Source of the DNA: Candidatus Nanoarchaeia archaeon
Lineage (GTDB): Archaea > Nanobdellota > Nanobdellia > Pacearchaeales > GW2011-AR1
Length of the DNA stretch: 64,000 nucleotides
NCBI GenBank assembly: GCA_035291345.1
Contig: DATDSF010000038.1
Span: 23,845-87,844, forward strand
Direction: 5' to 3'
Shown here: positions 1 through 51,018 of the stretch, piece after piece
Numbering within the stretch: position 1 is the first letter of the stretch
Layout of the letters: each line of letters starts with the position of its first letter
Notes under the pieces: model-generated
Told to the model about the DNA's origin: nothing
Database searches by the model: none
The model's input: the letters and a program-made list of their open reading frames with translations, nothing else
Position numbers and translations under genes: made by a program

Positions 1-56
1 TGATTTAGGAATTATTAATTCTTTGGACATATTTGTTTCCTTTCAAATTATTTTGA

Positions 57-77
57 TTGACAAAACAAATATAATAC
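57..77 (-). promoter_or_regulatory. conserved phage promoter-like motif
   Basis: Plus strand reads TTGACAAAACAAATATAATAC. Read leftward, in the direction of transcription, this is GTATTATATTTGTTTTGTCAA. Confidence 0.4.
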
Positions 78-83
78 ATCTGA

Positions 84-311
84 CTATTCAAGTGCAGTTT
101 TTAGCTTAGTGAAGATTTTTTGATGCATAATATAAAGAGACATAGGTTTCACATCAAGAATTCTACTAATTTCTTTTATTGATAAACCATCTCTATATTT
201 GAGGATTAGTAGCGTACGTTCTCTTTCTGGTAATTTCTTTAATAATTCAAGAAGTTTTTGATTAGTTTCTTCTTGTTCAAATTGTTCCTGTATATCTATA
301 CAATTATCCAT
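84..311 (-). CDS. sigma-70 region-4-like HTH protein (75 aa)
   Basis: LPERERTLLILKYRDGLSIKEISRILDVKPMSLYIMHQKI resembles the sigma-70 region 4 / LuxR-type HTH. Only region 4 is present. The upstream ORF 312..707 ends with a stop immediately before this ATG. Confidence 0.45.
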   Translation of the reverse strand: MDNCIDIQEQFEQEETNQKLLELLKKLPERERTLLILKYRDGLSIKEISRILDVKPMSLYIMHQKIFTKLKTALE

Positions 312-1587: not shown

Positions 1588-1612
1588 TTTTAATTACAAT
1601 ACAAATTTAATA

Positions 1613-1804
1613 CTACTTAGTTCTTTTATATGACATACTTGTTAATTCAATTACAGTTGATACAACCCCTCGATATTTTTGTTTATCAAGACCATTAACT
1701 TCCATGAAAAAATCCACTGCTAGTTCATAAGAATCAGCATATACTCTCGTTATATACTTTTTGGGATCACAAGAATACCCTACAATAAATAAATATTCTT
1801 TCAT
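1613..1804 (-). CDS. hypothetical small protein (63 aa)
   Basis: ORF with a stop/start overlap to the neighbouring gene. Confidence 0.3.
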   Translation of the reverse strand: MKEYLFIVGYSCDPKKYITRVYADSYELAVDFFMEVNGLDKQKYRGVVSTVIELTSMSYKRTK

Positions 1805-5745: not shown

Positions 5746-5751
5746 AATAAC

Positions 5752-6433: not shown

Positions 6434-6456
6434 AATTGATAAAACAAAATTAATAC
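6434..6456 (-). promoter_or_regulatory. conserved promoter-like motif (variant)
   Basis: GTATTAATTTTGTTTTATCAATT in the direction of transcription, upstream of 5752..6417. Confidence 0.4.
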
Positions 6457-6950
6457 TACCTTGTCTTTAAATTCAAATCAATGGTATTAATAATTGAATT
6501 CTTTGGTATATAGAATCTAAATTCAGCATTACATAATGACTTAGCGTATGAGTCAGAAGAAAAATACTGTGATACAAAATTATTAATATCAGTAATTTGA
6601 ACATTGCCAGAAGATAAAGCCATATTCATTGATTTAGTGTTTAAGAAAACATACAAATGCAAATGCTCATTAGACTCTATTATGGTAACAAATCTTGCAG
6701 GAATATTTAATGGATATATAATTCCATACCTTTCAACATAACAAGAATATATCATTTCTTGACCTGATTGAGATTGATATGAACCTATACCCAAAAAGAA
6801 TTGACCTGATCCATTTCCATGTGTTTGAGATGATACTACTAACTGTTTTAAGTTAAAAGTGCCCATAGCTTGACTAATCCAAGGCTGGCTCTTAATTACA
6901 ATTGAAGTAAAAAACAACATTAATGCAATTATTAGTGTCTTTTTGCACAT
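6456..6950 (-). CDS. secreted protein with N-terminal signal peptide (164 aa)
   Basis: MCKKTLIIALMLFFTSIVIKSQ signal-like N-terminus. Promoter-motif copy upstream. Confidence 0.4.
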   Translation of the reverse strand: MCKKTLIIALMLFFTSIVIKSQPWISQAMGTFNLKQLVVSSQTHGNGSGQFFLGIGSYQSQSGQEMIYSCYVERYGIIYPLNIPARFVTIIESNEHLHLYVFLNTKSMNMALSSGNVQITDINNFVSQYFSSDSYAKSLCNAEFRFYIPKNSIINTIDLNLKTR

Positions 6951-6970
6951 AATTTTATCTCTTTTAAAAA

Positions 6971-6991
6971 TTGATAAAACAAAATTAATAC
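6971..6991 (-). promoter_or_regulatory. conserved promoter-like motif (variant)
   Basis: GTATTAATTTTGTTTTATCAA upstream of 6456..6950. Confidence 0.4.
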
Positions 6992-7011
6992 TACAGCTGC
7001 TAAAACTTATC

Positions 7012-7526: not shown

Positions 7527-7915
7527 TTTAAATGCTCCTTTAAGAATTCTTCATAATTAATAACAATGTGATCAGTCAACGCAGCTAAAGATTCTGAATC
7601 GTCTCCCATTTCAATATATTCTCTAATCATATCTTCTAGTAAATCATAGATGGAAATTAAGACTAATGGTACTGAATTTATTGAAATCTGAGCTAACATA
7701 TCATCATCAATTTCTTCAGCAATTTCAATATCATGAAAAGCTTTAAACTCACGAAAAGTTTCATCAAAATTAATGTTTTTAGATAAATAGACGCATCTAA
7801 GAGAGTGTATACCTCTTAATCTCTCAAGAGTAAATATAATACATTCATTTAACTCAGAAAGCTTAGGATCCAACATTATATCCTCTTCAAATTTTATTTT
7901 AATTGGTAAAAACAA
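7523..7915 (-). CDS. hypothetical acidic protein (130 aa)
   Basis: ORF. Promoter-motif copy about 10-25 nt upstream. Confidence 0.4.
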   Translation of the reverse strand: MFLPIKIKFEEDIMLDPKLSELNECIIFTLERLRGIHSLRCVYLSKNINFDETFREFKAFHDIEIAEEIDDDMLAQISINSVPLVLISIYDLLEDMIREYIEMGDDSESLAALTDHIVINYEEFLKEHLK

Positions 7916-7924
7916 ATATAAGGC
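7904..7924 (-). promoter_or_regulatory. conserved promoter-like motif
   Basis: CCTTATATTTGTTTTTACCAA upstream of 7523..7915. Confidence 0.4.
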
Positions 7925-8022
7925 TTTTAAAATAATAAACTTAACTTAATTCAATTTAACAGAACTGAATATACTGTAACTTAATTCAATCGAATATAAA
8001 GTAAAAGACTTAAAAATCAAAT

Positions 8023-8053
8023 TTGAGGCCTCTATTAGACTAGAGGCCTCAAA
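8023..8053 (-). terminator. terminator-like GC-rich hairpin (copy 1)
   Basis: TTTGAGGCCTCTA-ttagac-TAGAGGCCTCAAA, a 13-bp perfect stem. On the minus strand it is followed by TTTGATTTTTAAG. Confidence 0.5.
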
Positions 8054-8191
8054 CTTAATATAATTGAATCTAATAAACTGAAACTGAACTAACCTGAATA
8101 AAGTGAAATTCAATTCAATAGAAGTTAATGCAATTCAATCTAATACAATTTAACTGAATCAATCTAGATATATTCAAATTTAATAATCAAA

Positions 8192-8223
8192 TTTGAGGCC
8201 TCTAATCTAGTAGAGGCCTCAAA
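8192..8223 (-). terminator. terminator-like GC-rich hairpin (copy 2)
   Basis: TTTGAGGCCTCTA-atctag-TAGAGGCCTCAAA. On the minus strand it is followed by TTTGATTATTAAATTTG. Downstream of gene 8302..8886. Confidence 0.5.
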
Positions 8224-8301
8224 CTTAACTTAATGAAATACAATCAAATCCACAGCAACTAAATATAGTAAAATAAAATGAAACCGAGCTTAATTGAATA
8301 A

Positions 8302-8886: not shown

Positions 8887-9421
8887 CTTTTCTTGGACGC
8901 ATAGCCAACAATCCTACAAATTTACCGGCTTTATCAAGATATTCAATAACCTTTTCAGACCTATCAATCAAAATAGGATCAATAATTATGATTCTTGCTT
9001 TTCCAGTCCATTCTGTAATAACTGGAAATTTCTTCCATACCCTTGAACTTCCGCCCTTTTTACCATCAGAAGGTACAAACATTGGTAGATAACTTACTGC
9101 ACTTTCATCAATACCCAATTGGATATTTTCAGGAATTGATATGCCAGCTTCAAAATGTTTTGTGTAAGTTGCTTTGCCTTTACCAGGAACTGATTCTGAT
9201 AAAAATCTTGCACATTCAACTAAAGTGTTACTAAGTGCTCTACCAGGAATGTAAACTTCTTTAGTTGTTGGATCAAAATGAAGTCTTTCTTTCCAAGTCT
9301 TGTCTTCAAATTTTTCATGAGCATCTCCAGCTTCTTTTTTGGAGATAATAGGCTTATTATACAAAATTGGACTTGCGCTTGTTAATTCAACTTCAAAGCA
9401 TTTGATTGTTTCTTTTTTCAT
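8834..9421 (-). CDS. hypothetical protein
   Basis: ORF. Start placed at the internal Met (MKKETIK) with an AAAAAGGG ribosome-binding site. The longer ORF would overlap the conserved promoter motif at 9439-9459. Confidence 0.4.
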   Translation of the reverse strand: MKKETIKCFEVELTSASPILYNKPIISKKEAGDAHEKFEDKTWKERLHFDPTTKEVYIPGRALSNTLVECARFLSESVPGKGKATYTKHFEAGISIPENIQLGIDESAVSYLPMFVPSDGKKGGSSRVWKKFPVITEWTGKARIIIIDPILIDRSEKVIEYLDKAGKFVGLLAMRPRKGGEYGRFLVKSYKEVEL

Positions 9422-9438
9422 CTTTATACCCTTTTTAA

Positions 9439-9459
9439 TTGTTTTTAATTGATAAAAAC
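9439..9459 (-). promoter_or_regulatory. conserved promoter-like motif
   Basis: CCTTATATTTGTTTTTATCAA upstream of 8834..9421. Confidence 0.4.
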
Positions 9460-9553
9460 AAATATAAGGCTTCACTCATATTAAACCTCATAAATTTAAT
9501 ATGGCGAAGCCTTTGGATTAAGAAGGAAAAGAGTGCTTTCTCAAAAAACCTTC

Positions 9554-10204
9554 TTAAATAAGAGTAGTACTGTATTTTAATATGTAAAACTCTTCAAGTC
9601 TTTTATCTTTAAGAACAGTCTCAAGTTCACTTGCATTTTCCCCTACTTCAACTTCATCGACCTCCCCATCAAGAATAATTTGAAATGTCTCATGAGTAGG
9701 AAAAGATAAAGAGCTTACTGCATAAACATCTGCAATAATTGTATTTAATAAAGCCAAAGAGATTTCAGTAATAGTTTCATTGATTGAATATACTGAGTCA
9801 CAGCCCCAAAAACTAAGGCCCGTCAATACATCTGAGTCTACTGAAAAATTCCATAAAATCTTTGCATGTTCTTTGTTTAGCATTTTTAATCTTCTTAGAA
9901 GATCTGAAAGCATCAAATGATAAAAATAGATTAATTGTGTTTTAACCCAGTAACGTCCAAAACTGTTAAGAGGTGGTAAATACCAACTGATTTTAGACTT
10001 AATAAATTCTTTTAGAAACATTTTCTGAAAGACCTGAATATAATTTAAAGCTATTATTTCAGAGTAATTTCCTTTTGCTCTTTGAAGCTCAGCTTCAAAT
10101 TCTTTACAGCGTTCAACAAAGAATGGGAAGTTTAATACAGCTTGTTCAATGTCGGTTCTTGTTATAGGTTGTTTCAACCTATCTGTCAAGTATAACCTTT
10201 CCAT
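9554..10204 (-). CDS. hypothetical protein (216 aa)
   Basis: ORF. Confidence 0.4.
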   Translation of the reverse strand: MERLYLTDRLKQPITRTDIEQAVLNFPFFVERCKEFEAELQRAKGNYSEIIALNYIQVFQKMFLKEFIKSKISWYLPPLNSFGRYWVKTQLIYFYHLMLSDLLRRLKMLNKEHAKILWNFSVDSDVLTGLSFWGCDSVYSINETITEISLALLNTIIADVYAVSSLSFPTHETFQIILDGEVDEVEVGENASELETVLKDKRLEEFYILKYSTTLI

Positions 10205-10251
10205 TTAGTACCTCTATTTTAGTTATTTATTTACCCTGTTTTTCAAGGAGT

Positions 10252-10638
10252 TTAAAATCTATTCCTTTCATGATAAAACTTTGATTTTACCCAATGTTTT
10301 CTTTTCCTTTTCTCAATAAAAACTTCTTTTGGGATTTCAAATAGTGCATTACTAAGCTTGAAAATCTCAGGTACTAGTCTTTCAGGTGTCTTAATTATTA
10401 TCTCGAACAATTCAATGTTTCTTAATTTACTATTAATTGACACCATATGAGATATTAATTGAGCTTCTATTTCACCAAAATCAACTCCGATTATAGCAAT
10501 TTTATTATGACTCATCAGGTTTAACTCTAAAATTTTCAGGATATGAAATAATATCAAATAGTGACACTGAAATTCTATCTGCCCATCTCTCTTTGCTAAA
10601 TTTACCTGCTTTTGATTGTAGATCTTTTCCCTCTTCAA
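10252..10638 (-). CDS. hypothetical protein (128 aa)
   Basis: ORF. Overlaps 10505..10738 in another frame, so at most one of the two extents is fully correct. Confidence 0.3.
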   Translation of the reverse strand: MKREKIYNQKQVNLAKRDGQIEFQCHYLILFHILKILELNLMSHNKIAIIGVDFGEIEAQLISHMVSINSKLRNIELFEIIIKTPERLVPEIFKLSNALFEIPKEVFIEKRKRKHWVKSKFYHERNRF

Positions 10639-10746
10639 TAGCTTTTAAAAGTCTTGACACATTTAATAATGATATAGACTTTCCTCCTTTGAGAGTTATT
10701 CTCTCTATTTCACTACTGCTATATATAAGTTGTGTCATTTAAAACC

Positions 10747-11034
10747 TCAAATAAATGCTATATCTTTGCATTGAACTGTAATATCTATTTTATGGGTAAA
10801 AGACCAAACAAGAACAGATTTATTACTAAATCTATCATCAATAATGACAGGATTACAAATTGTTATACTACCTTTAGGTAATATATTGCCCATTTTGGTT
10901 TTTATTCTTTTTTTCACTTGGATTAAAACATAATTATCAAAATGTCCTTTATATTGAGGATAAGTCATTACTTGCTCGTAAGCATTCTGTCTTAATTTTA
11001 AAACTATTAGAGCATCAGCCATTTTAGACCTCAA
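10747..11034 (-). CDS. hypothetical protein (95 aa)
   Basis: ORF. Confidence 0.35.
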   Translation of the reverse strand: MRSKMADALIVLKLRQNAYEQVMTYPQYKGHFDNYVLIQVKKRIKTKMGNILPKGSITICNPVIIDDRFSNKSVLVWSFTHKIDITVQCKDIAFI

Positions 11035-11036
11035 GA

Positions 11037-11252
11037 TTATTTTTCTTTTTTCATAATGAAAGAATCACAATATGTCTGTTTGTGTTTATTAGTACTTTTT
11101 AAATTAAAGCATTCTCTATACACATAACATGAATTAATAGATTTCCTATAAACAATCTCTAAAGTTTTGTTATCACTACCAAAACCTATTGAAATTAGAA
11201 CCTTTGCATTGATTAATTTTTCATTAGTTACAATCTGTATTTTATTAGCCAT
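11037..11252 (-). CDS. hypothetical protein (71 aa)
   Basis: ORF. Confidence 0.3.
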   Translation of the reverse strand: MANKIQIVTNEKLINAKVLISIGFGSDNKTLEIVYRKSINSCYVYRECFNLKSTNKHKQTYCDSFIMKKEK

Positions 11253-11269
11253 GTAAATCCTTTTTATTT

Positions 11270-11343
11270 GCGGAGGCGTTAGGACTCGAACCTAAATCCC
11301 ATATCATTTCTGATACGATAATTACCATTATTACAACATCTCC
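11270..11343 (-). tRNA. tRNA-like element (possible tRNA gene or pseudo-tRNA); anticodon undetermined
   Basis: The reverse complement reads GGAGATG-TT-GTAA-TAATGGTAA-TTAT-C-GTATC-AGAAAT-GATAT-GGGAT-TTAGG-TTCGAGT-CCTAA-CGCCTCC-G. It has a canonical T-arm (GGTTCGAGTCC), a 7-bp acceptor stem with one mismatch, and a D-arm containing GG. The anticodon arm as read has only a 6-nt loop, which is aberrant. Confidence 0.4.
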
Positions 11344-11386: not shown

Positions 11387-12334
11387 TTATTGATTAGGAC
11401 CTAACAATGAGCCTGTTTGTACGGGTATTGGCCCATAATGATTTGCTGGGACATATCTTCCATCCCATCTTTTAATTTCTTCATATTTATTTTGTAGCCG
11501 GATTTTTTCCAATTCATATTGCATAAATGAAGCAGTCAATATGTAGTACTTTTGTAGGCCTTCTCCTTCTTTGAACTTAGCCTTAGCATTGATTTCTGCC
11601 GCAGCGAGATTTCCTTCCGCAATTAATACTTTCGCTGTCTTTTGAGCCTCTGCCTGTTTTACTTGCTTTTGAGCTTCTTGTTCTGCAATCAATAATTCTT
11701 GTTGTTTTACTTTCACTTGTTGAGCTTCAGCCATAGTTCGTTCAATTTGCTTCTCAAATTGTTCTGACCAGTCGTAGTTAATGATTTTGAAATTATCTAC
11801 CAAGACAGGATAGATTTTTAATTCCTGCTTTATAAGAGCTTCGACTTGACCAGCAATCATTTGCTGATTAGCTGCGACATCAAATATAGTATATTTACCA
11901 ATAACTTGCTTAAATGCGGATTGAAGAGTTCGATAAACAATGCTCTTCATCTTGTCAACGCCCACTTTTTGCCACAGATAATGCAGTTTGTATTCATTGT
12001 TAGATATAAATAGTTTAGTACTCGCACCGACTGTTTGGTTATCTTTTGTAATAGCGCCTTCCGGACCTACAAGAACATCAACTTCTATTTCTTCAGGCCG
12101 CACAGACAAAACTTCAACCGATTGAAAGAATGGCATAGTAAATTGAACGCCAGGATTAAGTGTACTTTGTTCAAGTTTACCCATGTTAAAACGCAAACCT
12201 CGAGAACCTTCTGGTATGATTGTAATAACCATCCAGAGAACGATTAAGATACCAAAGATACCTAAACCGATTTTCAATCCTTTGCTTGATTTCAAAGTAT
12301 TGAGTAATTGTTGCATTGGTGATTCGTAAGCCAT
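11387..12334 (-). CDS. SPFH/band-7 (prohibitin/HflK-like) domain membrane protein
   Basis: N-terminal TM helix followed by a region typical of stomatin/prohibitin, then a Gln/Ala/Lys-rich coiled-coil (QQVKVKQQELLIAEQEAQKQVKQAEAQK). AAAGGAG ribosome-binding site. Confidence 0.55.
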   Translation of the reverse strand: MAYESPMQQLLNTLKSSKGLKIGLGIFGILIVLWMVITIIPEGSRGLRFNMGKLEQSTLNPGVQFTMPFFQSVEVLSVRPEEIEVDVLVGPEGAITKDNQTVGASTKLFISNNEYKLHYLWQKVGVDKMKSIVYRTLQSAFKQVIGKYTIFDVAANQQMIAGQVEALIKQELKIYPVLVDNFKIINYDWSEQFEKQIERTMAEAQQVKVKQQELLIAEQEAQKQVKQAEAQKTAKVLIAEGNLAAAEINAKAKFKEGEGLQKYYILTASFMQYELEKIRLQNKYEEIKRWDGRYVPANHYGPIPVQTGSLLGPNQ

Positions 12335-12365
12335 TATAGCTCCTTTTATTGTTTGAATTAATTTA

Positions 12366-12384
12366 TTGACAAAACAAATATATC
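12366..12384 (-). promoter_or_regulatory. conserved promoter-like motif
   Basis: GATATATTTGTTTTGTCAA upstream of the SPFH gene. A second, weaker copy lies at 12487-12506. Confidence 0.45.
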
Positions 12385-12516
12385 TCTTCTAATAAAAATG
12401 CCTCTTAAGTTTTAAATGCTTCCAATTGTGGGGGGTCAATTGGACATATTAAAGACAAAAGAGGCAAACTTTATTTAATCAAAAAAGTACAAAACAAAAA
12501 TAATACATCAGTGATT

Positions 12517-13422
12517 CTATTTTTTATTTAATTTACTGAAAGGTGAGGAAATGCCTAGTAATTTCAACTTAGATTCAAACTCATCTAATTCTCTTGAAAC
12601 CTTAATATAAGAATTATCAACATACGACAACCAACCAAATTCTGTGGCCAATTCAAAAATATCTTTTGGAGTATATTTCTCAGCAATGATCATTTGTATT
12701 AAGTTATAGTCTTTCTGGAAAAGTTTTAAAGAATATAACTCATACTCTTCAAATGCAGACCATGATATTGGGAACTCTTCTTTAACAAATTCTGCAATAG
12801 CCAAAGCATACTGATGGATCTCATATTGTGCATGCGAGTCCAATCGAAGTCTTAAAAAGTTAAATAAGTTATGCAAATCAATCTTCCAATAAGCTTCTGT
12901 ATAAGTTGATAATGGAAGATCTTTTCTTGCTTGTTCTTTTGCAACTCCAGCTTCAATTCGTTCATTATATATTCTTGTAGCGATAGCTTGAAAATTTTTC
13001 TCATCTTTTGAAAGATTATGGGCTAATATAGGGTTTATATCTTCAAGTTTTCCAGCAGAACCTTGTTTATTGTCTTGAGCTTGTACTCTCCACTGATTTT
13101 GTGCAGTTTCTTGTTTCTCATCAATTGCTAATGAATATCTGGTTGAATATTCATTTACATTTGCAGTTCTATGTCTAATCCATTGACGCCAACAATCCAT
13201 AGGAACTTTAACATGAAATTTCATTTCAACCATTTCAAATGGTGATGTGTGCCCATGTCTATAAAGATATTTTATTAAACCTTTGTCTTCAGAGACTTTT
13301 TTAGTACCAGCACCATATGAAACTCTTGCTGCTTGAACAATTGAGTCATCAGAGCCCATTACATCAACAAGGCGTACAAATCCCTTATCTAAAACATTAA
13401 TTTTTCTACTCCACTGTTCCAT
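12517..13422 (-). CDS. thyX: FAD-dependent thymidylate synthase ThyX
   Basis: ThyX signature RHRTANVNEYSTRYS (RHR-x7-S). Length about 300 aa, as expected for ThyX. Confidence 0.8.
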   Translation of the reverse strand: MEQWSRKINVLDKGFVRLVDVMGSDDSIVQAARVSYGAGTKKVSEDKGLIKYLYRHGHTSPFEMVEMKFHVKVPMDCWRQWIRHRTANVNEYSTRYSLAIDEKQETAQNQWRVQAQDNKQGSAGKLEDINPILAHNLSKDEKNFQAIATRIYNERIEAGVAKEQARKDLPLSTYTEAYWKIDLHNLFNFLRLRLDSHAQYEIHQYALAIAEFVKEEFPISWSAFEEYELYSLKLFQKDYNLIQMIIAEKYTPKDIFELATEFGWLSYVDNSYIKVSRELDEFESKLKLLGISSPFSKLNKK

Positions 13423-13808: not shown

Positions 13809-14576
13809 TTAAAATATATTACGATCTATCATATATGATCTATAAGCATGTAAACTATTAATAAGAACAATAAGTTTACCGGGTTCAATTGGCACTCCAT
13901 CAACTAGTTGATCATTAATTCTTTTAGTTACCCAATCATTTAATTTTCCAGCAAGGTACATGTCATTGATAAAATGCGTGTAAAAATCACAACTCCTCAT
14001 GTGATAAAACATAATCAATTTATTATCACGAATCAACCAAGAATAATCTAAAGAACAAGAAACCCGTCCAGTTTGTTCATTCATGTCTTGGTCAAGATCA
14101 CTTGAATAGATATTTAATACTTGACGTCTTGAATTCCTATCTAATACAAGTTGATTAATAATACGAAGCAGAAGATTATTACGGAAGAAGCGCTCATTGT
14201 AAGTATATTCAAAACGACCATTAACCATAATTGGTTCCCAAACATACCGACGTAATTTCCAAGCTTCACCAGGATTGGGACTAATAGCTGATTCATCTAC
14301 TCTTTCAAGAAACTCAACATTGGCCCATGCAAGAACGTTATCTGGTTGTTCTATTGAATCTTTATAGATAAAAGCATAAGCCTTTTTAACTTCAGCTAAT
14401 GGGTCTAGTATTGAGAATGTTTCTCCTTGAATTTCTTTAGTAGTATACTTCTCAACAAGTTCAGGTGTGTCAAGTTTTTTGTTCTGAAATGACTTAAGTC
14501 TAACCTCTTGACCCATTTCGAATAAGTTTCTTTGTGTTTCTTTCACTGTCTCGTAAAGATTTTTGTAAATCCTCAT
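13809..14576 (-). CDS. thymidylate synthase ThyA-fold protein (TS or deoxypyrimidylate hydroxymethylase family)
   Basis: RRQVLNIYSSDLD aligns to ThyA RRIIVSAWNPxDL. GRVSCSLDY...FYHMRSCDFYTHFINDMYLA aligns to ThyA PCHAFFQFY...[21 protein letters not shown]. LHAY near the C-terminus aligns to ThyA DAHIY. Strong AAAGGAG ribosome-binding site. Confidence 0.65.
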   Translation of the reverse strand: MRIYKNLYETVKETQRNLFEMGQEVRLKSFQNKKLDTPELVEKYTTKEIQGETFSILDPLAEVKKAYAFIYKDSIEQPDNVLAWANVEFLERVDESAISPNPGEAWKLRRYVWEPIMVNGRFEYTYNERFFRNNLLLRIINQLVLDRNSRRQVLNIYSSDLDQDMNEQTGRVSCSLDYSWLIRDNKLIMFYHMRSCDFYTHFINDMYLAGKLNDWVTKRINDQLVDGVPIEPGKLIVLINSLHAYRSYMIDRNIF

Positions 14577-15798: not shown

Positions 15799-15841
15799 TT
15801 TTAATTAGGCCTCCCGACCTTGTTTTGTTAATAAAATAAAA

Positions 15842-15862
15842 TTGACAAAACAAATATAATGC
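15842..15862 (-). promoter_or_regulatory. conserved promoter-like motif
   Basis: GCATTATATTTGTTTTGTCAA upstream of 15379..15798. Confidence 0.5.
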
Positions 15863-15868
15863 TTCTTG

Positions 15869-16853: not shown

Positions 16854-16887
16854 TAATTGATTTTTTATTTCTCATTGAAATAAAAAT

Positions 16888-16907
16888 TTGATAAACAAAT
16901 ATAAAGC
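16888..16907 (-). promoter_or_regulatory. conserved promoter-like motif
   Basis: GCTTTATATTTGTTTATCAA upstream of 16385..16831. Confidence 0.5.
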
Positions 16908-16931
16908 TTCTTTCTATTCTGTTCTGCAAAA

Positions 16932-17360
16932 TTAATCTTTATCTCTTAACAAGCTGTGAGTATCAAGAAATTCATTTAATGAAAAAGTACCTTTTTTATG
17001 TTCAACAAACATTGCCCAATATGTTAAAAAGTCTATATCGGGCCTTTGGTTTTTTGAGTCAAAGATTACATTACTAGTACTCCTAAAACAAATTTGGAAT
17101 TCTTTAAATTTTTTCAAGCATTCTGCAGTATTTATAACTAAGCCATTTTCAAGATTTATAAATTTAAAATAAGGAAAAGTTTCACCAACAAGATAATTCT
17201 CAATTGAATCTTCTTTTCCCTCAGGTAAACCAATAAAATAAGATGGTGCTAAATCTTTAACTTTTGAAATCTCAATATTATCCTCAGTAAAAACAAGAAA
17301 TTTAGTCATATTTTTCCTCTGGAAAGGGTATAAATTAAATAAACAAAACATCCTAAACAA
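16932..17360 (-). CDS. hypothetical protein (142 aa)
   Basis: ORF. Promoter-motif copy about 100 nt upstream. Confidence 0.4.
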   Translation of the reverse strand: MFRMFCLFNLYPFQRKNMTKFLVFTEDNIEISKVKDLAPSYFIGLPEGKEDSIENYLVGETFPYFKFINLENGLVINTAECLKKFKEFQICFRSTSNVIFDSKNQRPDIDFLTYWAMFVEHKKGTFSLNEFLDTHSLLRDKD

Positions 17361-17463
17361 AAAAATATAAATAGTGCAAATAAAGGTAGAATTACTTGAA
17401 GCATTAATAATGTAAACATTAGAGGTATTAATCTCATTTAATCCCTTAATTGAATATTTTTAA

Positions 17464-17484
17464 TTGAATTACAAATATAATATC
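17464..17484 (-). promoter_or_regulatory. conserved promoter-like motif
   Basis: GATATTATATTTGTAATTCAA about 100 nt upstream of 16932..17360. Confidence 0.35.
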
Positions 17485-17566
17485 TCTTTGATACTTGAAA
17501 ATATTATATTTTGCTCAATTAATATGTGAGATATAGTTATTTGGATTTTTAAACTATACGTGAAGG

Positions 17567-20930: not shown

Positions 20931-21032
20931 ATCAATTATTTATTTTTATTCAACAAATATAATTCATCATTAATACAGAAATGCCAGAAAATAAATTCTG
21001 GCATTTCTAGACTAAGAATATTTAGAAGAATA

Positions 21033-21290
21033 TTAAGCTTGAGGTGCAGATGCAATTGTTTCGCGTTTCTCTCTTAAAGCAGCTCTAAGTTCCTTCATGA
21101 ATTTGGTCATTGCAGAACTGCCAGTATTTACTCTTTTGCCTGGAGCTTTCATACCCTTATCAAAAAAGCGAATAATATCTGTTTTCAACTGTTCAGTAAT
21201 TTCATCTAATTTACCACAAAGCAATTCACCTTGTGTTGGATCTACTACTGCAGTTTCTGTTGCAACGGATTCTGTTTTTACTTCTGCCAT
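21033..21290 (-). CDS. abundant small protein candidate (85 aa)
   Basis: Shares an identical 26-bp ribosome-binding site and leader (ACTAAAAGGAGCCAAACAAATGGC) with 16385..16831. Promoter motif upstream. Confidence 0.5.
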   Translation of the reverse strand: MAEVKTESVATETAVVDPTQGELLCGKLDEITEQLKTDIIRFFDKGMKAPGKRVNTGSSAMTKFMKELRAALREKRETIASAPQA

Positions 21291-21312
21291 TTGTTTGGCT
21301 CCTTTTAGTGGT
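21286..21312 (-). repeat. conserved translation-initiation region, copy B
   Basis: Identical 24-26-nt segment in front of 21033..21290. Confidence 0.7.
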
Positions 21313-21328
21313 TGAAATTAATTTATTA

Positions 21329-21350
21329 TTTGAGACAACAAATATATTAC
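21329..21350 (-). promoter_or_regulatory. conserved promoter-like motif
   Basis: GTAATATATTTGTTGTCTCAA upstream of 21033..21290. Confidence 0.45.
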
Positions 21351-21838
21351 ATCTTTTATTTTTTGATGTGAAAAATTTTTAGAACCATACTTTATTGATA
21401 AAATATAAAATGTATCTTATTAGTGAAATAATTGATAATCAAAATATTCTAATAAATAAACTTCTTTCCAATGCGCTCGCCCGTAGTTGCTTTTATATTT
21501 TATATCAGAATGTTAATAATATAAATGTTAAGATCTTGTTTACCATAATTTAATTCAAATTTAATTTAAAAACACCCGTTGAACCGTTGACTTCATTAGT
21601 GAATATGTCATATAACAAGTCAAAAGTAACTTGTGTGTTTTGACTTTTTCTGGCGGTTCAAAAATCAATCTGTAAAAAGTTTAAAACTCTCAATTTGAAG
21701 AACACCGAGTTCGAAAATCCTAATATATTATATATAAATAAGGTTAATAATTTAAAACTAAAATAAGTTAAATAGCTTTTTAGTTAAATATATTGGAATT
21801 TTCCGCAACTCTGAGTATACTTTATTTTATTGAGATTA

Positions 21839-22063: not shown

Positions 22064-22299
22064 TAATTAACCTTATCTCTTTTATAGTTTTCAATCATAT
22101 TTGATAGTGTTTCTATACAATCTGTAAAATTATCTTCATTCTCCTGAGATTTTAACCATAAGTTAAATTCTGGATCATTTAGTAGTGAAACTAATTCTTC
22201 AAACAATATCTTATATTCTTCTGGATTCAATTAATTTCGCACCAATGGAGTAACTGATTGTTTAATTTTGTCACATCAATTTTGGAGTAAATTTTCAAT

Positions 22300-23612: not shown

Positions 23613-24958
23613 TTGAAGATTTTTTATCCGAGCAATTAGCAGTTGGTTTAATGCTTAATAGCCGAGAAGCTGCATTCAAAGGAATTGGTGAATTAGATGA
23701 TGGAGATTTTGCAAATCCAAATTTTATCGTAGTATTTAGAGCAATTAGAAAAGTTATTGAGCAGCAAAAAGAAGTTGATATATTCTCAGTAAATTCAATG
23801 CTTGAGAATATGGGAAAACCTTTGAGTCTTGAAGAACTATTCAATATTGAAGACAAATTCTATGTTGAAGAGAAGTTTGATTCTATTATTGAGATTTTAC
23901 ATGATAAGAAGAACAGAAGAATTACAGATCAAAAATTAAAAGAAGTATCAAAAAGGCTTAATAATGATAATACTTCTTTTGATACTATTATAAGAGATAT
24001 TGATTCAGTTTTTGATACAAAGACTTATTCATCAAATGTAGTCTCAGGTACAAACTATCTTGAGTTTAGAGCTCAACAGGATAAAGAAAAAAGAGAAAGA
24101 AAATGGATTCTTACAGGCTTTGAAGAAATTGATAATATTTTAACCTATAAAATATCAAGGGGGGAAATATCAGTAATTGCTGCAAGACCCTCAAATGGTA
24201 AATCTGCCCTAAAAACTAATCTAATTAAAAATATGTGTGAGCAAGGAGTAGGTGTAGTAAACTATGCTCTTGAGCAAACAATGGAAGTTGAATCTGATAG
24301 ACTAGAATCTTTAGTCAGTGGGATACCTGGTCAATTTATTGTAGATTGCCACATATGGGAAGATACAGATTTTAGAAAGATAAAATTAATGGAAGCAAGA
24401 GAAAAGATTGCTACTTGGAATTACCATTTAATTGAAGGTATAAGTAAATCTCTCGCTGAGATAAAAAGTGAATTAAGAATGCTAAAGAGAAAAGGTATTG
24501 AAATTGCATTCTTTGATTTATTTGATAGAATAAAAGATGTTGTAAATAGTACATCAAATAAAGCTCAACAAGTAACAAAGTGTTTAACTGAGATGCTTGC
24601 TATTGCAAAAGAATTAAATATACATATTTGTGTTATAGTACAATTAAATAGAGATCTTACTAAAAGAAAGAGTATGATTCCACAACTATCTGATTTAAAA
24701 GATTCTGGAGCATATGAAGAAGTTGCAAGAACAGTATTCTTTTTACATTATCCAAAAGCTCATGATAGAAAATTAGTAGAATCAAACATTACATGGATCA
24801 TTGCAAAACAAAATAATGGGCCATTATTTGAGATGGATATTCCTTTCCAAGAAGACATAGGAAAATTTATTTCAAAAGATCCAAGTAATCAAGGTATTAA
24901 GAAAAAAGGTCTAAGTCAACCATCTTCTAATATTGAGACTCAAAATGATAGAAAATGA
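23609..24958 (+). CDS. DnaB-like replicative DNA helicase
   Basis: Walker A IAARPSNGKSAL (DnaB ARPSMGKT). H4-like IVQLNRDL. About 450 aa. Confidence 0.75.
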   Translation: MIEDFLSEQLAVGLMLNSREAAFKGIGELDDGDFANPNFIVVFRAIRKVIEQQKEVDIFSVNSMLENMGKPLSLEELFNIEDKFYVEEKFDSIIEILHDKKNRRITDQKLKEVSKRLNNDNTSFDTIIRDIDSVFDTKTYSSNVVSGTNYLEFRAQQDKEKRERKWILTGFEEIDNILTYKISRGEISVIAARPSNGKSALKTNLIKNMCEQGVGVVNYALEQTMEVESDRLESLVSGIPGQFIVDCHIWEDTDFRKIKLMEAREKIATWNYHLIEGISKSLAEIKSELRMLKRKGIEIAFFDLFDRIKDVVNSTSNKAQQVTKCLTEMLAIAKELNIHICVIVQLNRDLTKRKSMIPQLSDLKDSGAYEEVARTVFFLHYPKAHDRKLVESNITWIIAKQNNGPLFEMDIPFQEDIGKFISKDPSNQGIKKKGLSQPSSNIETQNDRK

Positions 24959-25604
24959 GGAATTAGTTAAATTTTGTGCAAAATATCAAGAAGGTAAAGT
25001 AACTGATAAAGAATTATGTTACTACTTTTATAAACTAAAAAGATCTTGGTATTTAAAGTATTATGAGGATAAATCAGGAATATTATTAAAAGAAGATTTT
25101 GAATCTATTGCCTATTTTGGTTATATAAAAGCATTAAAAACATATAATCCATTAAAAAATAACTCTCCACACGCATGGATATATATGCTTGTAAAACAAG
25201 CAGTGGTTAAAGAAATTATTTCAATTTTTAAAAAATCAGGTATGGTTATAAATTCTCATATGGACCCAAATTTAGAAATTGAAAATTATGATATTGAGAT
25301 TGAAGTTCCAATGGATTTTGATATTAGGGTTTATGTATCAGATGGTACACTTATAAAATTTATAAAAGAAATACAAGGAGTTTTTAGAGGGAAGTCTGGT
25401 CAAAAAATTGGTAATATCTTTCAATTAAAACTTATGTTTCCAAACATGAAAAGAGAAACTATCGCAAAAATCATTGGTTATAGTAGACGAAATGGTATTG
25501 CAAAACCTATGAAAAAGATAAGAGCAATGTTTCATAATGTTGATATTAATACTTCTTCTATAAATTCTAAATTTATAGATTATATCACTAAGTCATTATC
25601 ATGA
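24945..25604 (+). CDS. sigma-70-family sigma factor (regions 2 and 4)
   Basis: EDFESIAYFGYIKALKTYNP...SPHAWIYMLVKQAVVKEI aligns to sigma region 2.1-2.4 (DLIQEGNIGLMKAVDKFDP...FSTYATWWIRQAI). C-terminal HTH RETIAKIIGYSRRNGIAKPMKKIRAMF corresponds to region 4. Start set at the in-frame ATG at 24945. Confidence 0.55.
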   Translation: MIENEELVKFCAKYQEGKVTDKELCYYFYKLKRSWYLKYYEDKSGILLKEDFESIAYFGYIKALKTYNPLKNNSPHAWIYMLVKQAVVKEIISIFKKSGMVINSHMDPNLEIENYDIEIEVPMDFDIRVYVSDGTLIKFIKEIQGVFRGKSGQKIGNIFQLKLMFPNMKRETIAKIIGYSRRNGIAKPMKKIRAMFHNVDINTSSINSKFIDYITKSLS

Positions 25605-27121: not shown

Positions 27122-27523
27122 ATGGAGAATAAAAGAAAAATTAATACTAAGAATGAATTTGAACAAGACATTGATAAATTTTTACTTGAAAAGAAAGGTA
27201 TAGAATCATTTTTTATTAGTGGAATTGGCTTAAGAACCAACAGAAAGAAGAATGAAAGATATCATCAACTTAAAGTTAATATACCCAAAATGAATGTAGA
27301 AGCATTTCAAACTTTTGCTTTATATTTAATGCTCACATATAGAACAGAAAAAGTTGATAGAAAACCCCCAATAACCAAATGGTTAGTAGAACTTGTTAGT
27401 CAAAAGATTAAAGAATTAGTTGATAGTAAGGATCCAACTTGGATTGAGGCTAGAAATCTTTTAAGAGACTATAAGTTTCAATATCATAAAAAATTAATGG
27501 AACAAGGAAATAAAAATCAATGA
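27122..27523 (+). CDS. hypothetical protein (133 aa)
   Basis: ORF. Confidence 0.4.
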   Translation: MENKRKINTKNEFEQDIDKFLLEKKGIESFFISGIGLRTNRKKNERYHQLKVNIPKMNVEAFQTFALYLMLTYRTEKVDRKPPITKWLVELVSQKIKELVDSKDPTWIEARNLLRDYKFQYHKKLMEQGNKNQ

Positions 27524-27525
27524 TA

Positions 27526-27542
27526 TATTATATTTGTAAATA
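27526..27542 (+). promoter_or_regulatory. conserved promoter-like motif
   Basis: ATATTATATTTGTAAAT upstream of 27560..28042. Confidence 0.35.
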
Positions 27543-27559
27543 AATAAAAAGGATTTATT

Positions 27560-28042: not shown

Positions 28043-28941
28043 TAACAGTTATTGACGGTTCTAATCTTGCTTATAGAGCATACCATACTTTTATTCAATT
28101 TGAATCAAGTGGTGGCGCACCTACGGGTATGTTATATGGGTTTTTATCTATCCTTAATTCTTATGCTAATAGGTTTGGCTCTAGTATTGTAATTACTTGG
28201 GACAAAAAACCCTATTGGAGAAAGATATATTATCCTGCATATAAAGAATCCAGAAAGGAAAATGAAGAATTTGAAAAAATGCGTATTGAAGAGTCTTTTA
28301 GGATACTAAAGGAAGTACTAACGCATTGTGGAATAGTTCAAATTGATAAATTAACTTATGAAGCAGATGACATAATTGCCTTTATAGTAAAAAAGTTTAG
28401 TAGAGATATCACAGTTATATCTGGAGATAAAGATTTACTTTCATTAATGGATGAGAGTAAAAATATAAATATTGTTAGACCCGGTAAGAAAGGACTTATA
28501 AAATATAATGAACAAATGGTAATGGAAGAATTTGGAGTATCAAAAGCAGATATACCAAAATATCTTGCTATTGTTGGTGATAAATCTGATAACATTATTG
28601 GATTATATGGATTTGGTCCGGTCAAGACAGCAAAATTGATTGATGAGCATCCAGATTTGATGAATAAACTTAATCAATTATTTCCTGCAGATTTTCAAAG
28701 AATTAAGCTTAATCTAGAATTGGTTGATTTAAAGAATCCAAAAGTGAAAATTAATTATCTTGAAAGAGAAGATATTAAAATGCCAAATCCAGACAGATTG
28801 AAACTCTCCATGGTATTAAGAGATTCTGAAATTAAAGCTTTTAGTCCTTCTGATCTTATTGAGAATTTTAGCAATCTTAAAATAAAAACAGACGTATTAA
28901 ATTTGTTAACTGAAAAAATTGAAACCCGGTTTAATAATTAA
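28039..28941 (+). CDS. flap endonuclease / 5'-3' exonuclease (FEN, T5 D15 / Pol I 5'-nuclease family)
   Basis: N-terminus VIDGSNLAYRAYH. Helix-3-turn-helix motif GDKSDNIIGLYGFGPVKTAKLI. Confidence 0.8.
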   Translation: MITVIDGSNLAYRAYHTFIQFESSGGAPTGMLYGFLSILNSYANRFGSSIVITWDKKPYWRKIYYPAYKESRKENEEFEKMRIEESFRILKEVLTHCGIVQIDKLTYEADDIIAFIVKKFSRDITVISGDKDLLSLMDESKNINIVRPGKKGLIKYNEQMVMEEFGVSKADIPKYLAIVGDKSDNIIGLYGFGPVKTAKLIDEHPDLMNKLNQLFPADFQRIKLNLELVDLKNPKVKINYLEREDIKMPNPDRLKLSMVLRDSEIKAFSPSDLIENFSNLKIKTDVLNLLTEKIETRFNN

Positions 28942-32244: not shown

Positions 32245-32254
32245 CAAAGCTGAA

Positions 32255-32274
32255 TTATATTTGTTTTGTAAAAT
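32255..32274 (+). promoter_or_regulatory. conserved promoter-like motif
   Basis: ATTATATTTGTTTTGTAAAA about 15 nt upstream of the kinase gene at 32290. Confidence 0.45.
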
Positions 32275-43630: not shown

Positions 43631-44401
43631 ATGTCTGAAGATCAAATACCAAAAAAGATTTACGATGTATTAAAAAAATTAATGAATCTAAAAGAAGGTG
43701 CAGAAAAAATAGGCTCAATTCATGAAGCAGAGAATGCTGCAGCCAGAATTAATGAAATTCTTCTTAAATATAACTTAGAGCTTTCTGAAATTAAATTTTC
43801 AGAGAAATCAAAGATTGAATATGATGAAACAGCTTTACCAGGTATTGTATTTGAAGATGGAATATTTAAAAATAAACGTAAAAATGAAGGTAATTGGGTT
43901 CAACTTCTATATATGATCATTAGTAAACATAATTTATGTAAAGTAGTATTTTCCACTAGAAAGAATTTTATTTTTGGAGTAATGATTTTTGGTAAAAGAG
44001 TGAATATTGAAATAGTTAAATACTTAATTGGTTATCTTGAAGTTGTATTATTAGAGCTAGCAAAAACCTCTTGGAATACTCATTCATTATCAAATACTAG
44101 TGATACTAAAAATACTTATATAAGATCTTTTCTTCAAGGAGCTGTGATGGGGATTAATAAAAAACTTACAGACGAAAAGAATAGAATGATGGCAGAATCA
44201 AATATAATGACTTCTTTAATTAAGAGAGAAGATATTGAAATTGATGCAGTAATTAATGCCCAATTAAAAGACCAAAAAGAAAAAAAGATGCAAACTTCAT
44301 CTTCAAATAATGGATTAAAACATGGATTTGAAGCTGGGAAAGCTATACAGCTTAATAAAGGATTGCATACAAATAGTCAAAACTCAAAAATGATTAACTG
44401 A
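43631..44401 (+). CDS. hypothetical protein (256 aa)
   Basis: ORF. Confidence 0.4.
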   Translation: MSEDQIPKKIYDVLKKLMNLKEGAEKIGSIHEAENAAARINEILLKYNLELSEIKFSEKSKIEYDETALPGIVFEDGIFKNKRKNEGNWVQLLYMIISKHNLCKVVFSTRKNFIFGVMIFGKRVNIEIVKYLIGYLEVVLLELAKTSWNTHSLSNTSDTKNTYIRSFLQGAVMGINKKLTDEKNRMMAESNIMTSLIKREDIEIDAVINAQLKDQKEKKMQTSSSNNGLKHGFEAGKAIQLNKGLHTNSQNSKMIN

Positions 44402-44403
44402 TG

Positions 44404-44424
44404 ATTTATATTTGTTAAGTTAAT
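44404..44424 (+). promoter_or_regulatory. conserved promoter-like motif
   Basis: ATTTATATTTGTTAAGTTAAT upstream of the polymerase gene. Confidence 0.4.
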
Positions 44425-48685: not shown

Positions 48686-48697
48686 ATGAAACTGATG

Positions 48698-48718
48698 AAT
48701 TATATTTGTTTTAACAAT
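48698..48718 (+). promoter_or_regulatory. conserved promoter-like motif
   Basis: AATTATATTTGTTTTAACAAT upstream of 48741..49757. Confidence 0.45.
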
Positions 48719-50045: not shown

Positions 50046-50997
50046 AATAGATATGAACTCAAATGCCCATATCATTGCTCTTTATGGTAAAGAAGAAAAA
50101 GGTTTACTAAATATAAAAAGATCTTATGGCTTTATATGGTATTCGGTGGGAAAAAAAGCAAAGATTATTAAAAGAACTGAATACATACTTGATGACAATG
50201 CTTTAATGGAGAAGGCATTAATAGAATTTTTCAATGTTTTTGAGTTGATAAAGCATAAAATGGTTACAAAGAAGCTTATATTCTCTATACCAGCCAATAC
50301 AGAAATTGACCCTGATTGTATGAGTCAGAATATTGCTCATGCCATAAGATTAGGATTTGATATTACATTTGAAGAGTCTCATTCATGGACACAAGAAATA
50401 ATAAGTGATGTTTACAAAGCTAATACAGAGTATAAAGAAATAAATGATTTTAATGATAAGAAAAGAATATTGTCTGTATGTGATGAATCATCAATAGATA
50501 AAGATCTTATTGATTCTGGATTTGAACTTCGTCAATATATATCTAAGCATGAATCTGGAATACCAGGAATTGAAAAGAAAATATTGTTCGTAGAAGATTT
50601 AGCTTCTCAAGATAAATATATTATTGAATCAAATATTATGTGGCCATTGTATACTGAGGAATTAAATGACTTAATGAGACGCACTTGCATGATGATTAGA
50701 GATAGTGAGATAGTAATAATGGTTTCTAGTATTGTGAACCCATCGGACGGCGAATTTATTGATGGTTATCATACTGCTATTTATGCTTTATGTACTTCAA
50801 TGAGTAAGAAAGTATTAGTTTATGATGTTGCTACTCAAAAATGGTATTCGGAGTCAACTTCTTCTAAAAGAGAATTAGTTAGGACATCAATTAAATCAGT
50901 CGCACAATATAATTTAATTGGATTTAGTTCTTTATTTAAACCCTATGCATTATGTAGAGAAACAGTAAAAAAATTCTTAAAAGAATTAAAGATGTAA
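50032..50997 (+). CDS. hypothetical protein (321 aa)
   Basis: ORF. Confidence 0.45.
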   Translation: MDLSKIDMNSNAHIIALYGKEEKGLLNIKRSYGFIWYSVGKKAKIIKRTEYILDDNALMEKALIEFFNVFELIKHKMVTKKLIFSIPANTEIDPDCMSQNIAHAIRLGFDITFEESHSWTQEIISDVYKANTEYKEINDFNDKKRILSVCDESSIDKDLIDSGFELRQYISKHESGIPGIEKKILFVEDLASQDKYIIESNIMWPLYTEELNDLMRRTCMMIRDSEIVIMVSSIVNPSDGEFIDGYHTAIYALCTSMSKKVLVYDVATQKWYSESTSSKRELVRTSIKSVAQYNLIGFSSLFKPYALCRETVKKFLKELKM

Positions 50998-51018
50998 TAT
51001 ATTTATTTTGTCAATTTT
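50996..51018 (+). promoter_or_regulatory. conserved promoter-like motif
   Basis: AATATATTTATTTTGTCAATTTT upstream of 51075..51656. Confidence 0.4.

Follow-up and report, generated by a model that had tools for sequence, protein, structure and literature searches.

At least 23 copies of a conserved signal of about 25 bases are present in the DNA of an uncultured phage; 20 of them lie in the 64,000-nt stretch analysed here (the window), and three in the 10 kb past its start. The copies are very probably promoters, and almost certainly they represent the promoter set of the non-structural, early/middle genes. Each site would form a single extended element, restricted to the -10 region, for a bacterial multisubunit RNA polymerase equipped with a sigma-70-family factor; transcription start, polymerase and sigma factor are what we infer from the sequence. 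Tentatively, and with somewhat less than even confidence in the statement as a whole (promoter identity included), the sites are proposed to be read by the host's primary sigma factor, of the Bacteroidota/FCB type. A sigma factor encoded by the phage itself has to be weighed against this proposal.

The window corresponds to positions 33704-97703 (reversed) of the 121,179-bp metagenomic contig k141_110238 (ENA ERZ27254811), as assigned by exact-protein look-ups. Adding neighbouring loci and a 26-kb IMG/VR contig of identical sequence brought the portion read to about 96 of the 121 kb. The same contig was found again in many samples, and one copy at NCBI is binned as 'Candidatus Nanoarchaeia'. 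This assignment was rejected as mis-binning, the genes being of bacterial-phage type (DnaB, DnaG primase, PolA, SLT lysin, sigma factor); an archaeal reading of the motif (TATA box/B recognition element, BRE) is likewise at odds with the bacterial gene content and the Shine-Dalgarno (SD) usage. The window is phage DNA with 29% G+C and ~6% non-coding sequence. Its genes form three blocks of alternating direction: leftward (1 to 22.1 kb), rightward (22.3 to 60 kb) and once more leftward (from 60.1 kb).

Copies of the motif and their placement

The copy flagged in the original prediction (15841..15865, minus strand, with the motif at 15862-15842) reads GCATTATATTTGTTTTGTCAA. It has the exact core, belongs to an upstream sub-class denoted GAAGC and scores 34.2 in a position weight matrix (PWM). 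The distance from the G of its box to the ATG at 15798, which is preceded by GGGAGG, amounts to 52 nt, and the predicted leader to 48 nt. A search of the window with the 17-mer core TATATTTGTTTTGTCAA, allowing three mismatches or fewer, yielded 14 matches, three of them exact, whereas 100 dinucleotide shuffles averaged 2.24 and never exceeded 6; 4052+, 13577- and 32552- among the 14 resemble the expected chance hits. All 16 copies listed in the original prediction carry the motif, although the coordinates 9439-9459 given there span only the downstream half of that copy, the box itself being located at 9459-9466. Iteration of the PWM added the sites 1609(-), 20961(-) and 28898(+), and comparative data contributed a conserved variant at 22263(+). 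A further site, 3922(-), is weak and doubtful and is not counted among the 20. The three copies outside the window match the consensus and lie in the same contig (L017 +12327, +14064 and +19666).

The placement of the copies is highly regular. In an unbiased count of 8-mers, the top-enriched sense-oriented non-coding words were all pieces of the motif. The octamer TATATTTG occurs 12 times in the 3.8 kb of non-coding sense sequence, 9 times in 60 kb of coding DNA and not once in non-coding antisense orientation. As had been claimed, the copies are oriented with the downstream gene, without exception (23/23). In the window, 18-19 of the 20 sites lie outside coding sequence; 28898 falls in the final 44 nt of the exonuclease gene, and the status of 9466 depends on the choice of start codon. 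The distance of 15-100 nt to a start codon stated for each copy fits the observed box-to-ATG distances, except for site 12502, which has no open reading frame (ORF) downstream. Exact 18-mer searches were uninformative: 14 contigs of IMG/VR and at least 117 contigs of GTDB genomes (Bacillota, Bacteroidota and others) gave one match each. These are chance hits and indicated neither a host nor relatives.

Alignment of the 23 sites, with the start of the box numbered -12, yields the consensus aGAwGnaT-TAtATTTG-TTTT-R-TCAAT, containing 23 bits over -20..+7. Upstream of the box, G-19 (22/23), G-16 (19/23) and T-13 (20/23) stand out. Within it, T-12, A-11, T-7 and T-6 are invariant, T-8 and G-5 are present in 22 of the 23 sites, and positions -10/-9 hold only T or A. 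T-4 is found at all sites and is followed by a T-rich stretch, usually a purine, and TCAAT. The predicted +1, 5 nt past the box G, is G or A in 16/23 sites, and others have a purine within 1 nt; leaders counted from this position measure 19-65 nt at most sites, and each contains an SD sequence. Three upstream sub-classes can be distinguished: (T/A)GATG(T/A)A(T/A), for example before PolA and an Hc1-like gene; (A/G)AAGC(A/C/T)T; and GTAGTAT with TAATTTTG, found before an SLT-domain, lysin-like gene and the gene next to it. These sub-classes may tune promoter strength or timing. Both variant families described earlier were recovered, namely GTAGTAT-TAATTTTG-TTTTATCAAT at 6452 and 6987 (in looser form at 1609) and AAGCCT-TATATTTG-TTTTTAYCAA at 7920 and 9466.

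Upstream of the motif, the 23 sites show no further conservation and neither a -35 nor a -33 element. The best TTGACA match 16-18 bp upstream averages 2.48 of 6 positions, compared with 2.61 in the background. The TG of extended -10 promoters is absent at -15/-14, where -15 is variable and -14 is an A in 17/23 sites, and the window shows no excess of TTGACA-17-TATAAT patterns (90 vs 113 expected). The -10 hexamer TATATT of most sites agrees with TATAAT in 5 of 6 positions, but in view of the -35 and TG results the motif is not a member of the canonical sigma-70/sigma-A class, in line with the original prediction, which had set it apart from host sigma-70 promoters. In reverse complement, the consensus becomes ATTGACAAAACAAATATAAT, with a perfect TTGACA and a perfect TATAAT only 7 bp apart. 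An antisense sigma-70 promoter was nevertheless rejected, the spacer being 10 bp too short and the TTGACA part unconserved in related phages; this arrangement is probably a coincidence. The '-10 TTTnTTT' of SPO1 gp28 was rejected as well: it fits the TTTGTTT of this phage, but the relatives have TTTGTAA or TTTGATT.

The distribution of the copies along the phage genome defines their temporal class. On the 26-kb IMG/VR contig, whose sequence is 100% identical to this phage, lie the genes for the major head protein, for tail proteins and for collagen-like tail fibres; on neither of its strands does any site exceed a PWM score of 8. The locus past the window end (L019) has no copies either. Thus, 23 sites in ~70 kb of non-structural DNA are opposed to none in the 26-kb structural module. 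Of the proposed 'middle or late' class, 'late' has to be abandoned because the motif is absent from the structural module; the class is early/middle. In the few gaps of that module, no convincing second (late) motif was found.

Probable promoter function and conservation in related phages

Several observations argue that the copies act as promoters, as originally proposed: the strict co-orientation with genes, the intergenic position, and a -10-like TA...T combined with a purine at the predicted start. Furthermore, both divergent gene clusters are headed by a copy (21346- and 22263+), a hairpin RNA follows one site, and orthologous sites exist in distant relatives. The site at 21329..21353 (-) heads the leftward cluster, with a leader of 44 nt to the Hc1-like gene (ATG 21290). 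The rightward cluster is headed by the variant promoter GATTGTT-TAATTTTG-TCACATCAATTTT (22256..22285, +), which has a low PWM score of 3.5 and precedes an operon (22300-27523) including the genes for DnaB, a sigma factor and a helicase. Since the two sites head divergent clusters, no transcript from upstream can reach them. Most of the others are probably internal promoters, because a strict terminator is present upstream of 1/20 sites only. This site (20944..20968, -, class GATG) lies 18 nt past a clean intrinsic terminator hairpin and has a leader of 19 nt to the ATG at 20930.

The site without a downstream ORF (12485..12509, -; PWM 29.8) is followed by a predicted structured non-coding RNA of ~95 nt (12395..12490, -). 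It begins at the predicted +1 (12490) and runs as far as a GC stem and U-run located directly before the next copy at 12382. Its minimum free energy is -32 kcal/mol (z = -4.4), and none of 200 shuffled sequences folded as well. With a motif promoter, a long hairpin, a terminator-like end, no ORF and no Rfam match, it is a candidate small RNA. Folding of the leader at 3796-3912 was not significant (z = -1.4).

A different function, as a repressor operator, as a leader RNA signal for processing, stability or translation, or as a selfish cassette repeated between genes, is improbable. Such readings would draw on the conservation of +1..+6 and of the T-run, which would place part of the motif in the RNA, on the absence of a terminator between most copies and the preceding gene, which would include them in read-through transcripts, and on the downstream half, TTTTGTCAAT, being specific to this phage. 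However, the motif lacks dyad symmetry, and neither flanking repeats nor target duplications were seen. The copies heading both divergent clusters have no upstream transcript, and behind another copy there is no ORF that could be regulated, but the hairpin RNA and a terminator. The half that is kept in relatives is the upstream, non-transcribed one (-19..-5).

These relatives were found via the sigma gene and the gene for the dUTPase. Four close ones, L020 (25% GC) and L146-L148 (27-31% GC), share the gene order at 35-55% protein identity and carry GA(T/A)G-n-a-T-TAwATTTG-TA at orthologous intergenic positions. The first of these positions is upstream of the Hc1-like gene, where the motif is found in all five phages; the other two lie upstream of the neighbour of this gene and after the helicase operon. 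Individually, site 21329..21353 has orthologues in L146, L147, L148 and L020, and site 20944..20968 in L146, L147 and L148, while the variant at 22263+ is conserved in the same form in L146 and L020. In the divergent gaps of L146-L148, which measure 65-73 nt, a TAnnTT(T/A)G box is the sole candidate. What is shared with the relatives is the upstream half, -19..-5, whereas TTTTGTCAAT is largely confined to this phage. In the relatives at a greater distance (L023, L025 and L027; 35-43% GC), tatTATATTTGat lies directly upstream of the sigma gene. As judged from these sequence comparisons, the motif is under selection.

Every close relative encodes the Hc1-type, histone H1-like DNA-binding protein (21033-21290, -; Pfam Hc1, E 3e-7); a second copy of its leader (CTAAAAGGAGCCAAACAAATGGC) stands before an unrelated gene at 16831. 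LAGLIDADG homing-endonuclease ORFs or intein-like insertions were noticed in L148 (14091-16631 and 19118-20633) and L147 (15824-16612); the endonuclease ORFs are located between methyltransferase and primase genes, and PolA of L148 contains the intein-like insertion. The phage of the window possesses neither.

Host or phage sigma factor as possible reader of the box

The proposed element would consist of G-19, G-16, T-13, the box T-12 A-11 H H T-8 T-7 T-6 G-5, a 4-nt T-rich stretch, a purine start and TCAAT, without a -35 element. Sigma domain 2 would nucleate melting at A-11/T-7, and transcription would begin ~5 nt past the box G, producing SD-carrying leaders mostly of 19-65 nt. The box would be recognized by the host's own primary sigma factor, one of the 'TAHHTTTG -7 box' type. 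Such a host would stand outside the class Bacteroidia because the phage uses SD sites. The phage sigma factor, co-expressed with the replication genes, may then switch on the structural module; as this late module is free of the motif, the phage factor would have an obvious role.

The comparison with Bacteroidota promoters underlies this proposal. In the -7 element TAHHTTTG of Flavobacterium johnsoniae sigma-A, T-12, A-11, T-8, T-7, T-6 and G-5 are near-invariant and G is not found at -10/-9 (PMC6847099); the motif core has all six of these invariant positions and likewise no G at -10/-9. Boxes of F. psychrophilum occupy -12..-5 of mapped starts, a spacing that places +1 on the conserved purine of the motif, 5 nt past the G, where flavobacterial transcripts start (PMC9723704). 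An upstream -33/-35 element is weak or absent in both systems (PMC6847099, PMC9723704). A -33 TTG/TTTG of the Bacteroidota type, 17-23 bp upstream of the box, was detected at 2/23 sites here vs 16% of random positions, a result of little weight because the -33 element stands out far less clearly in F. johnsoniae itself (PMC6847099). Flavobacterium phage 11b has identical TATATTTG boxes upstream of its genes, but there TTG abuts the box, in contrast to T-13 with a G at -16 in the phage studied here. The arrangement of the sigma operon points in the same direction: it starts its cluster, receives no read-through and has only a TAnnTT(T/A)G box at its head, so that a pre-existing factor must read this box. 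The Hc1-type gene present in all close relatives was also counted in favour of a host sigma factor; the Hc1 family is typical of Chlamydiae and Bacteroidota.

The sigma-like protein alluded to in the original prediction is real (24945..25604, +). It comprises 219 amino acids, with a domain 2, a linker and a domain 4. On its own, it matches Pfam Sigma70_r2 below the cut-off (E 3e-4) and has no word-based homologues, but an exhaustive HMMER search retrieved 20 distant relatives with 25-42% identity. With the family profile, the first match in the PDB is sigma-H (3mzy, E 4.8e-5), aligned over domains 2 and 4, and the next ones are other sigma factors; Sigma70_r2 is matched by 15/20 family members, and two relatives exceed the TIGR02937 cut-off over both domains and resemble the SigH, SigK and SigF models. 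In the AlphaFold (AF2) model (pLDDT 83), two helical domains are connected by a disordered linker, and the top Foldseek matches are sigma factors including T4 gp55 (7d7c_F), at E-values that are weak (2.9e-3 at best, with none as low as 1e-3). The gene is always placed between that for DnaB (or a ThyA-like gene) and that for the DEAD-box helicase, in a syntenic module common to metagenomic phages of 25-43% GC. No match to the sigma profile was found in GTDB genomes. The protein is a candidate reader either of the motif or of late promoters.

That this phage sigma factor directs the host core polymerase to the motif, defining a 'middle' regulon like that of phiEco32 gp36 or SPO1 gp28, is possible, if held slightly less probable than the host-sigma proposal. 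A first burst from an unrecognised host-type promoter would be followed by autoregulation, and the likeness to Bacteroidota boxes would be coincidental. The phage does encode a genuine two-domain sigma factor of a new family, and a precedent exists in phiEco32 gp36, likewise a two-domain phage sigma factor with one -10-region consensus, AATGTA centred at -11.5, and no -35 element (PMC12276001). Dependence of the motif on the phage factor is conjectural. The two consensus sequences, AATGTA and TAtATTTG, differ, and late genes are among those served by gp36 promoters, whereas the structural module here is free of the motif. The motif is long, uniform and without a -35 element, and the genes behind it bear SD sites; the box co-occurs with the sigma family over 25-43% GC. 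The most deviant copy in the window (PWM 3.5) heads the sigma operon, and a TTGATA-18-TAAAAT match lies ~170 nt upstream of it. Against the phage factor, the TAnnTT(T/A)G box being the only one in the 65-73-nt gaps of L146-L148 means that the factor would be needed for its own first expression. The motif also precedes early-looking regions of small ORFs, leaving almost no early class, and the motif-free structural genes would require a further late mechanism, although gp36-type sigma factors serve late genes too. Finally, chance would have to account for the exact agreement with the six invariant positions of Bacteroidota. As to which of the two factors reads the box, the host primary sigma is, narrowly, at least as likely as the phage sigma.

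A number of observations weigh against a host factor of the Bacteroidota type. SD duplexes of -5 kcal/mol or stronger are predicted for 53% of the genes and a core SD 4-mer is found in 66%, vs 7-8% of random 15-mers. The mean SD duplex is -4.8 kcal/mol, compared with +0.2 in Flavobacterium phage 11b, which served as a control (L022) and has SD sites in 2-8% of its genes vs 12-13% at random. No SD-using lineage with a TAHHTTTG box is known. Bacteroidetes mRNAs are devoid of SD sequences (PMC6847099), and the only organisms so far known to read TAHHTTTG are therefore unlikely hosts of this SD-rich phage. Chlorobaculum, the nearest lineage tested, has TAHHWT without the TG (bioRxiv 10.1101/172254). 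Moreover, the conserved G-19, G-16 and +1..+6 are not features of Bacteroidota promoters, F. johnsoniae having AT-rich motifs around -18 instead. Uniformity of 23 bits is more typical of a dedicated factor, and the box right before the sigma gene in L023, L025 and L027 looks like autoregulation. The sigma family resembles the Firmicute SigH/SigK/SigF models, and the replication proteins, among cultured phages, most often match SPO1-like Bacillus phages; these leanings toward Firmicute phages hint at a host with a canonical sigma-A.

That true Bacteroidota-type sigma-A promoters are read in a Bacteroidia-like host, where the anti-SD sequence is normally hidden and would have to be freed or exploited by the phage, for instance through ribosomes without bS21, appears unlikely; if true, it would amount to a phage-imposed switch in the mode of translation initiation. 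In a milder version, TAHHTTTG promoters and SD-led translation would occur together in a host lineage outside Bacteroidia; no such pairing has been described so far.

Appropriation of the host factor, comparable to that by T4 MotA/AsiA, also has a low probability. Here, the host sigma factor would bind the TA..TTTG box, while a phage DNA-binding protein, such as the 219-amino-acid protein or a stand-alone sigma region 4 protein (84..311, -), would bind G-19..G-16 or replace the -35 contact. The latter protein, of 75 amino acids, matches Pfam Sigma70_r4_2 (E 6.7e-12, above the cut-off) and TIGR02937 (positions 99-165, 47.5 bits) and could be a regulator or a sigma-4 mimic. The separate upstream element with its three sub-classes, the strong Pfam and NCBIfam scores of this free sigma-4 helix-turn-helix protein, and the lower conservation of the upstream element than of the box in distant relatives would suit such a division of labour. 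On the other hand, -19..-16 abuts the -10 region, far from the -30 to -35 positions of sigma-4/MotA-type binding, no link connects the 75-amino-acid protein with the sites, and the sigma-operon variant also retains G-19.

Least probable, and very unlikely, is an RNA polymerase of the phage itself, single-subunit and T7/N4-like or of another kind, encoded in the unread 25 kb (1-11289 and 107621-121179 of the 121-kb contig). In its favour, the conservation is contiguous from about -19 to +6: T7-class promoters likewise are near-identical copies of one block of ~23-25 bp spanning ~-17/-19 to +6. Unlike these, the motif has the sigma-dependent -10 signature TA...T. No RNA polymerase gene or domain was found among ~70 ORFs scanned in the ~96 kb, which included the large ORFs but not every ORF, and the large uncharacterised proteins are tail-like. 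The unread part must also accommodate the terminase and portal genes, and sigma-encoding phages normally rely on the host core enzyme.

Other phage systems resemble the motif in part. T4, a sigma-encoding phage too, has late promoters (gp55) that likewise consist of a repeated A/T-rich element of 8 bp, TATAAATA, at -10 only. They differ in driving structural genes and in lacking a G-19/G-16 part, and gp55 has no domain 4, which the sigma factor described here possesses. SPO1 (Herelleviridae), with its cascade of gp28 (middle) and gp33/34 (late), is a large lytic phage with ThyA-like base-modification genes. The sigma factor of the SPO1-like phage CP-51 is distantly similar to the one studied here, and the DNA polymerase and helicase also match SPO1-like phages, but protein identities reach only 24-27%. 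The middle and late promoters of SPO1 have two parts (-35 and -10), in contrast to the single element found here.

Further sites, novelty and neighbouring features

The remaining sites on the minus strand begin at 56..80 (class GATG, box TATATTTG at 66-73), an exact consensus copy (PWM 33.7) before a gene starting at ~30. The site at 1592..1616 (GTAGTAT-TAAATTTG; PWM 24.7) has a leader of 22 nt to the ATG at 1575, and two sites of class GTAGTAT-TAATTTTG follow: 6435..6459, with a leader of 23 nt to the SLT-domain, lysin-like gene (ATG 6417), and 6970..6994, with 25 nt to the ATG at 6950. Class AAGCCT is represented by 7903..7927 (leader of ~32 nt to the ATG at 7876) and 9449..9473 (leader of ~33 nt to the ATG at 9421). 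The site at 12365..12389 has the exact core and a leader of 36 nt to the gene of a Band_7/SPFH protein (ATG 12334), while 16886..16910 (class GAAGC, one T fewer before the start) has a leader of ~60 nt to the ATG at 16831. At 17462..17486, the downstream half is weaker, and the site precedes a previously uncalled, very hydrophobic ORF of 42 amino acids (17309-17437, -; MRLIPLMFTLLMLQVILPLFALFIFFCLGCFVYLIYTLSRGKI; ATG 17437), which thus has both an SD sequence and its own motif promoter and may encode a small membrane or holin-like protein.

On the plus strand, 27522..27546 has a weak downstream half, a leader of 19 nt to the ATG at 27560 and orthologues in L147, L148 and L020. The site within the 3' end of the 5'-3' exonuclease gene (28891..28915; PWM 24.5) has a leader of 32 nt to the ATG at 28942, and 32249..32273 one of 22 nt to a thymidylate-kinase-like gene (ATG 32290). 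Three sites of class GATG complete the set: 44400..44424, with a leader of 34 nt to the gene of DNA polymerase A (ATG 44453); 48694..48718, with one of 34 nt to the ATG at 48747; and 50991..51015 (box TATATTTA), with one of 65 nt to the ATG at 51075.

In functional terms, the sites make up a phage promoter regulon of the classic kind. Textbooks describe dedicated promoter sets for large lytic phages, and taken by itself the motif is useful for annotation but not surprising. No description exists of the consensus, of the phage lineage or of the sigma family. Searching the literature for the box in phages turned up nothing pertinent, and no cultured relatives of the lineage were found: the window has no similarity to cultured phages at the nucleotide level, and tblastn of PolA, DnaB, helicase and sigma against them returned only identities of up to 27%, to unrelated or SPO1-like phages. 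The motif provides a transcription map of at least 23 units and one candidate small RNA for an uncultured, widespread lineage of ~121-kb phages, whose sigma protein is indexed in 42 blocks of a public collection, and gives a new phage sigma family a candidate regulon. The unusual mix of Bacteroidota-type boxes and strong SD sites is the most interesting loose end. It either narrows the host to an FCB-group lineage outside Bacteroidia or reflects convergence of a phage sigma factor on the -7 box of Bacteroidota.

The rightward block is a module of replication and nucleotide metabolism. It encodes DnaB, a DEAD-box helicase, a 5'-3' exonuclease, DnaG primase and PolA, along with a RecA/UvsX-like protein, SbcCD, a dimeric dUTPase, ThyA-like enzymes and a DenV-like glycosylase; three DNA methyltransferases and two glycosyltransferase fusions are encoded as well. 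Base-modification genes are located at 12517-13422 (-), 13809-14576 (-), 31351-32244 (+), 33404-36798 (+) and 37103-41091 (+). The set comprises three thymidylate-synthase-like paralogues, two C5-cytosine methyltransferases, one N6/N4 methyltransferase and two large methyltransferase/glycosyltransferase fusion proteins, to which the relatives add a dCMP deaminase, and suggests hypermodified, possibly glycosylated, DNA bases. Auxiliary genes unusual for a phage encode an acyl-carrier-protein-like protein with a DSL motif (30198-30443, +), the dimeric all-alpha dUTPase (29538-30188, +) and the Band_7/SPFH membrane protein (11387-12334, -).

An Rfam scan of the window gave no matches. Between the divergent clusters lies a large non-coding control region (21291-21838 and 22064-22299). 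It is free of ORFs, contains several imperfect inverted repeats and may be an origin of replication or a regulatory hub. The non-coding segment 7937-8300, which precedes site 7903..7927, contains two direct repeats of ~170 nt, each with a near-perfect palindrome of a 19-bp stem (ATCAAATTTGAGGCCTCTA...TAGAGGCCTCAAA), as well as shorter repeats of the AATTCAAT type, and could represent twin terminators, small RNA genes, or a replication/packaging element. At 11270-11343 (-), ARAGORN reports a tRNA-like gene of ambiguous identity with a four-base anticodon (gaaa), which could be a frameshift-suppressor-like tRNA or a mis-folded tRNA-Phe.

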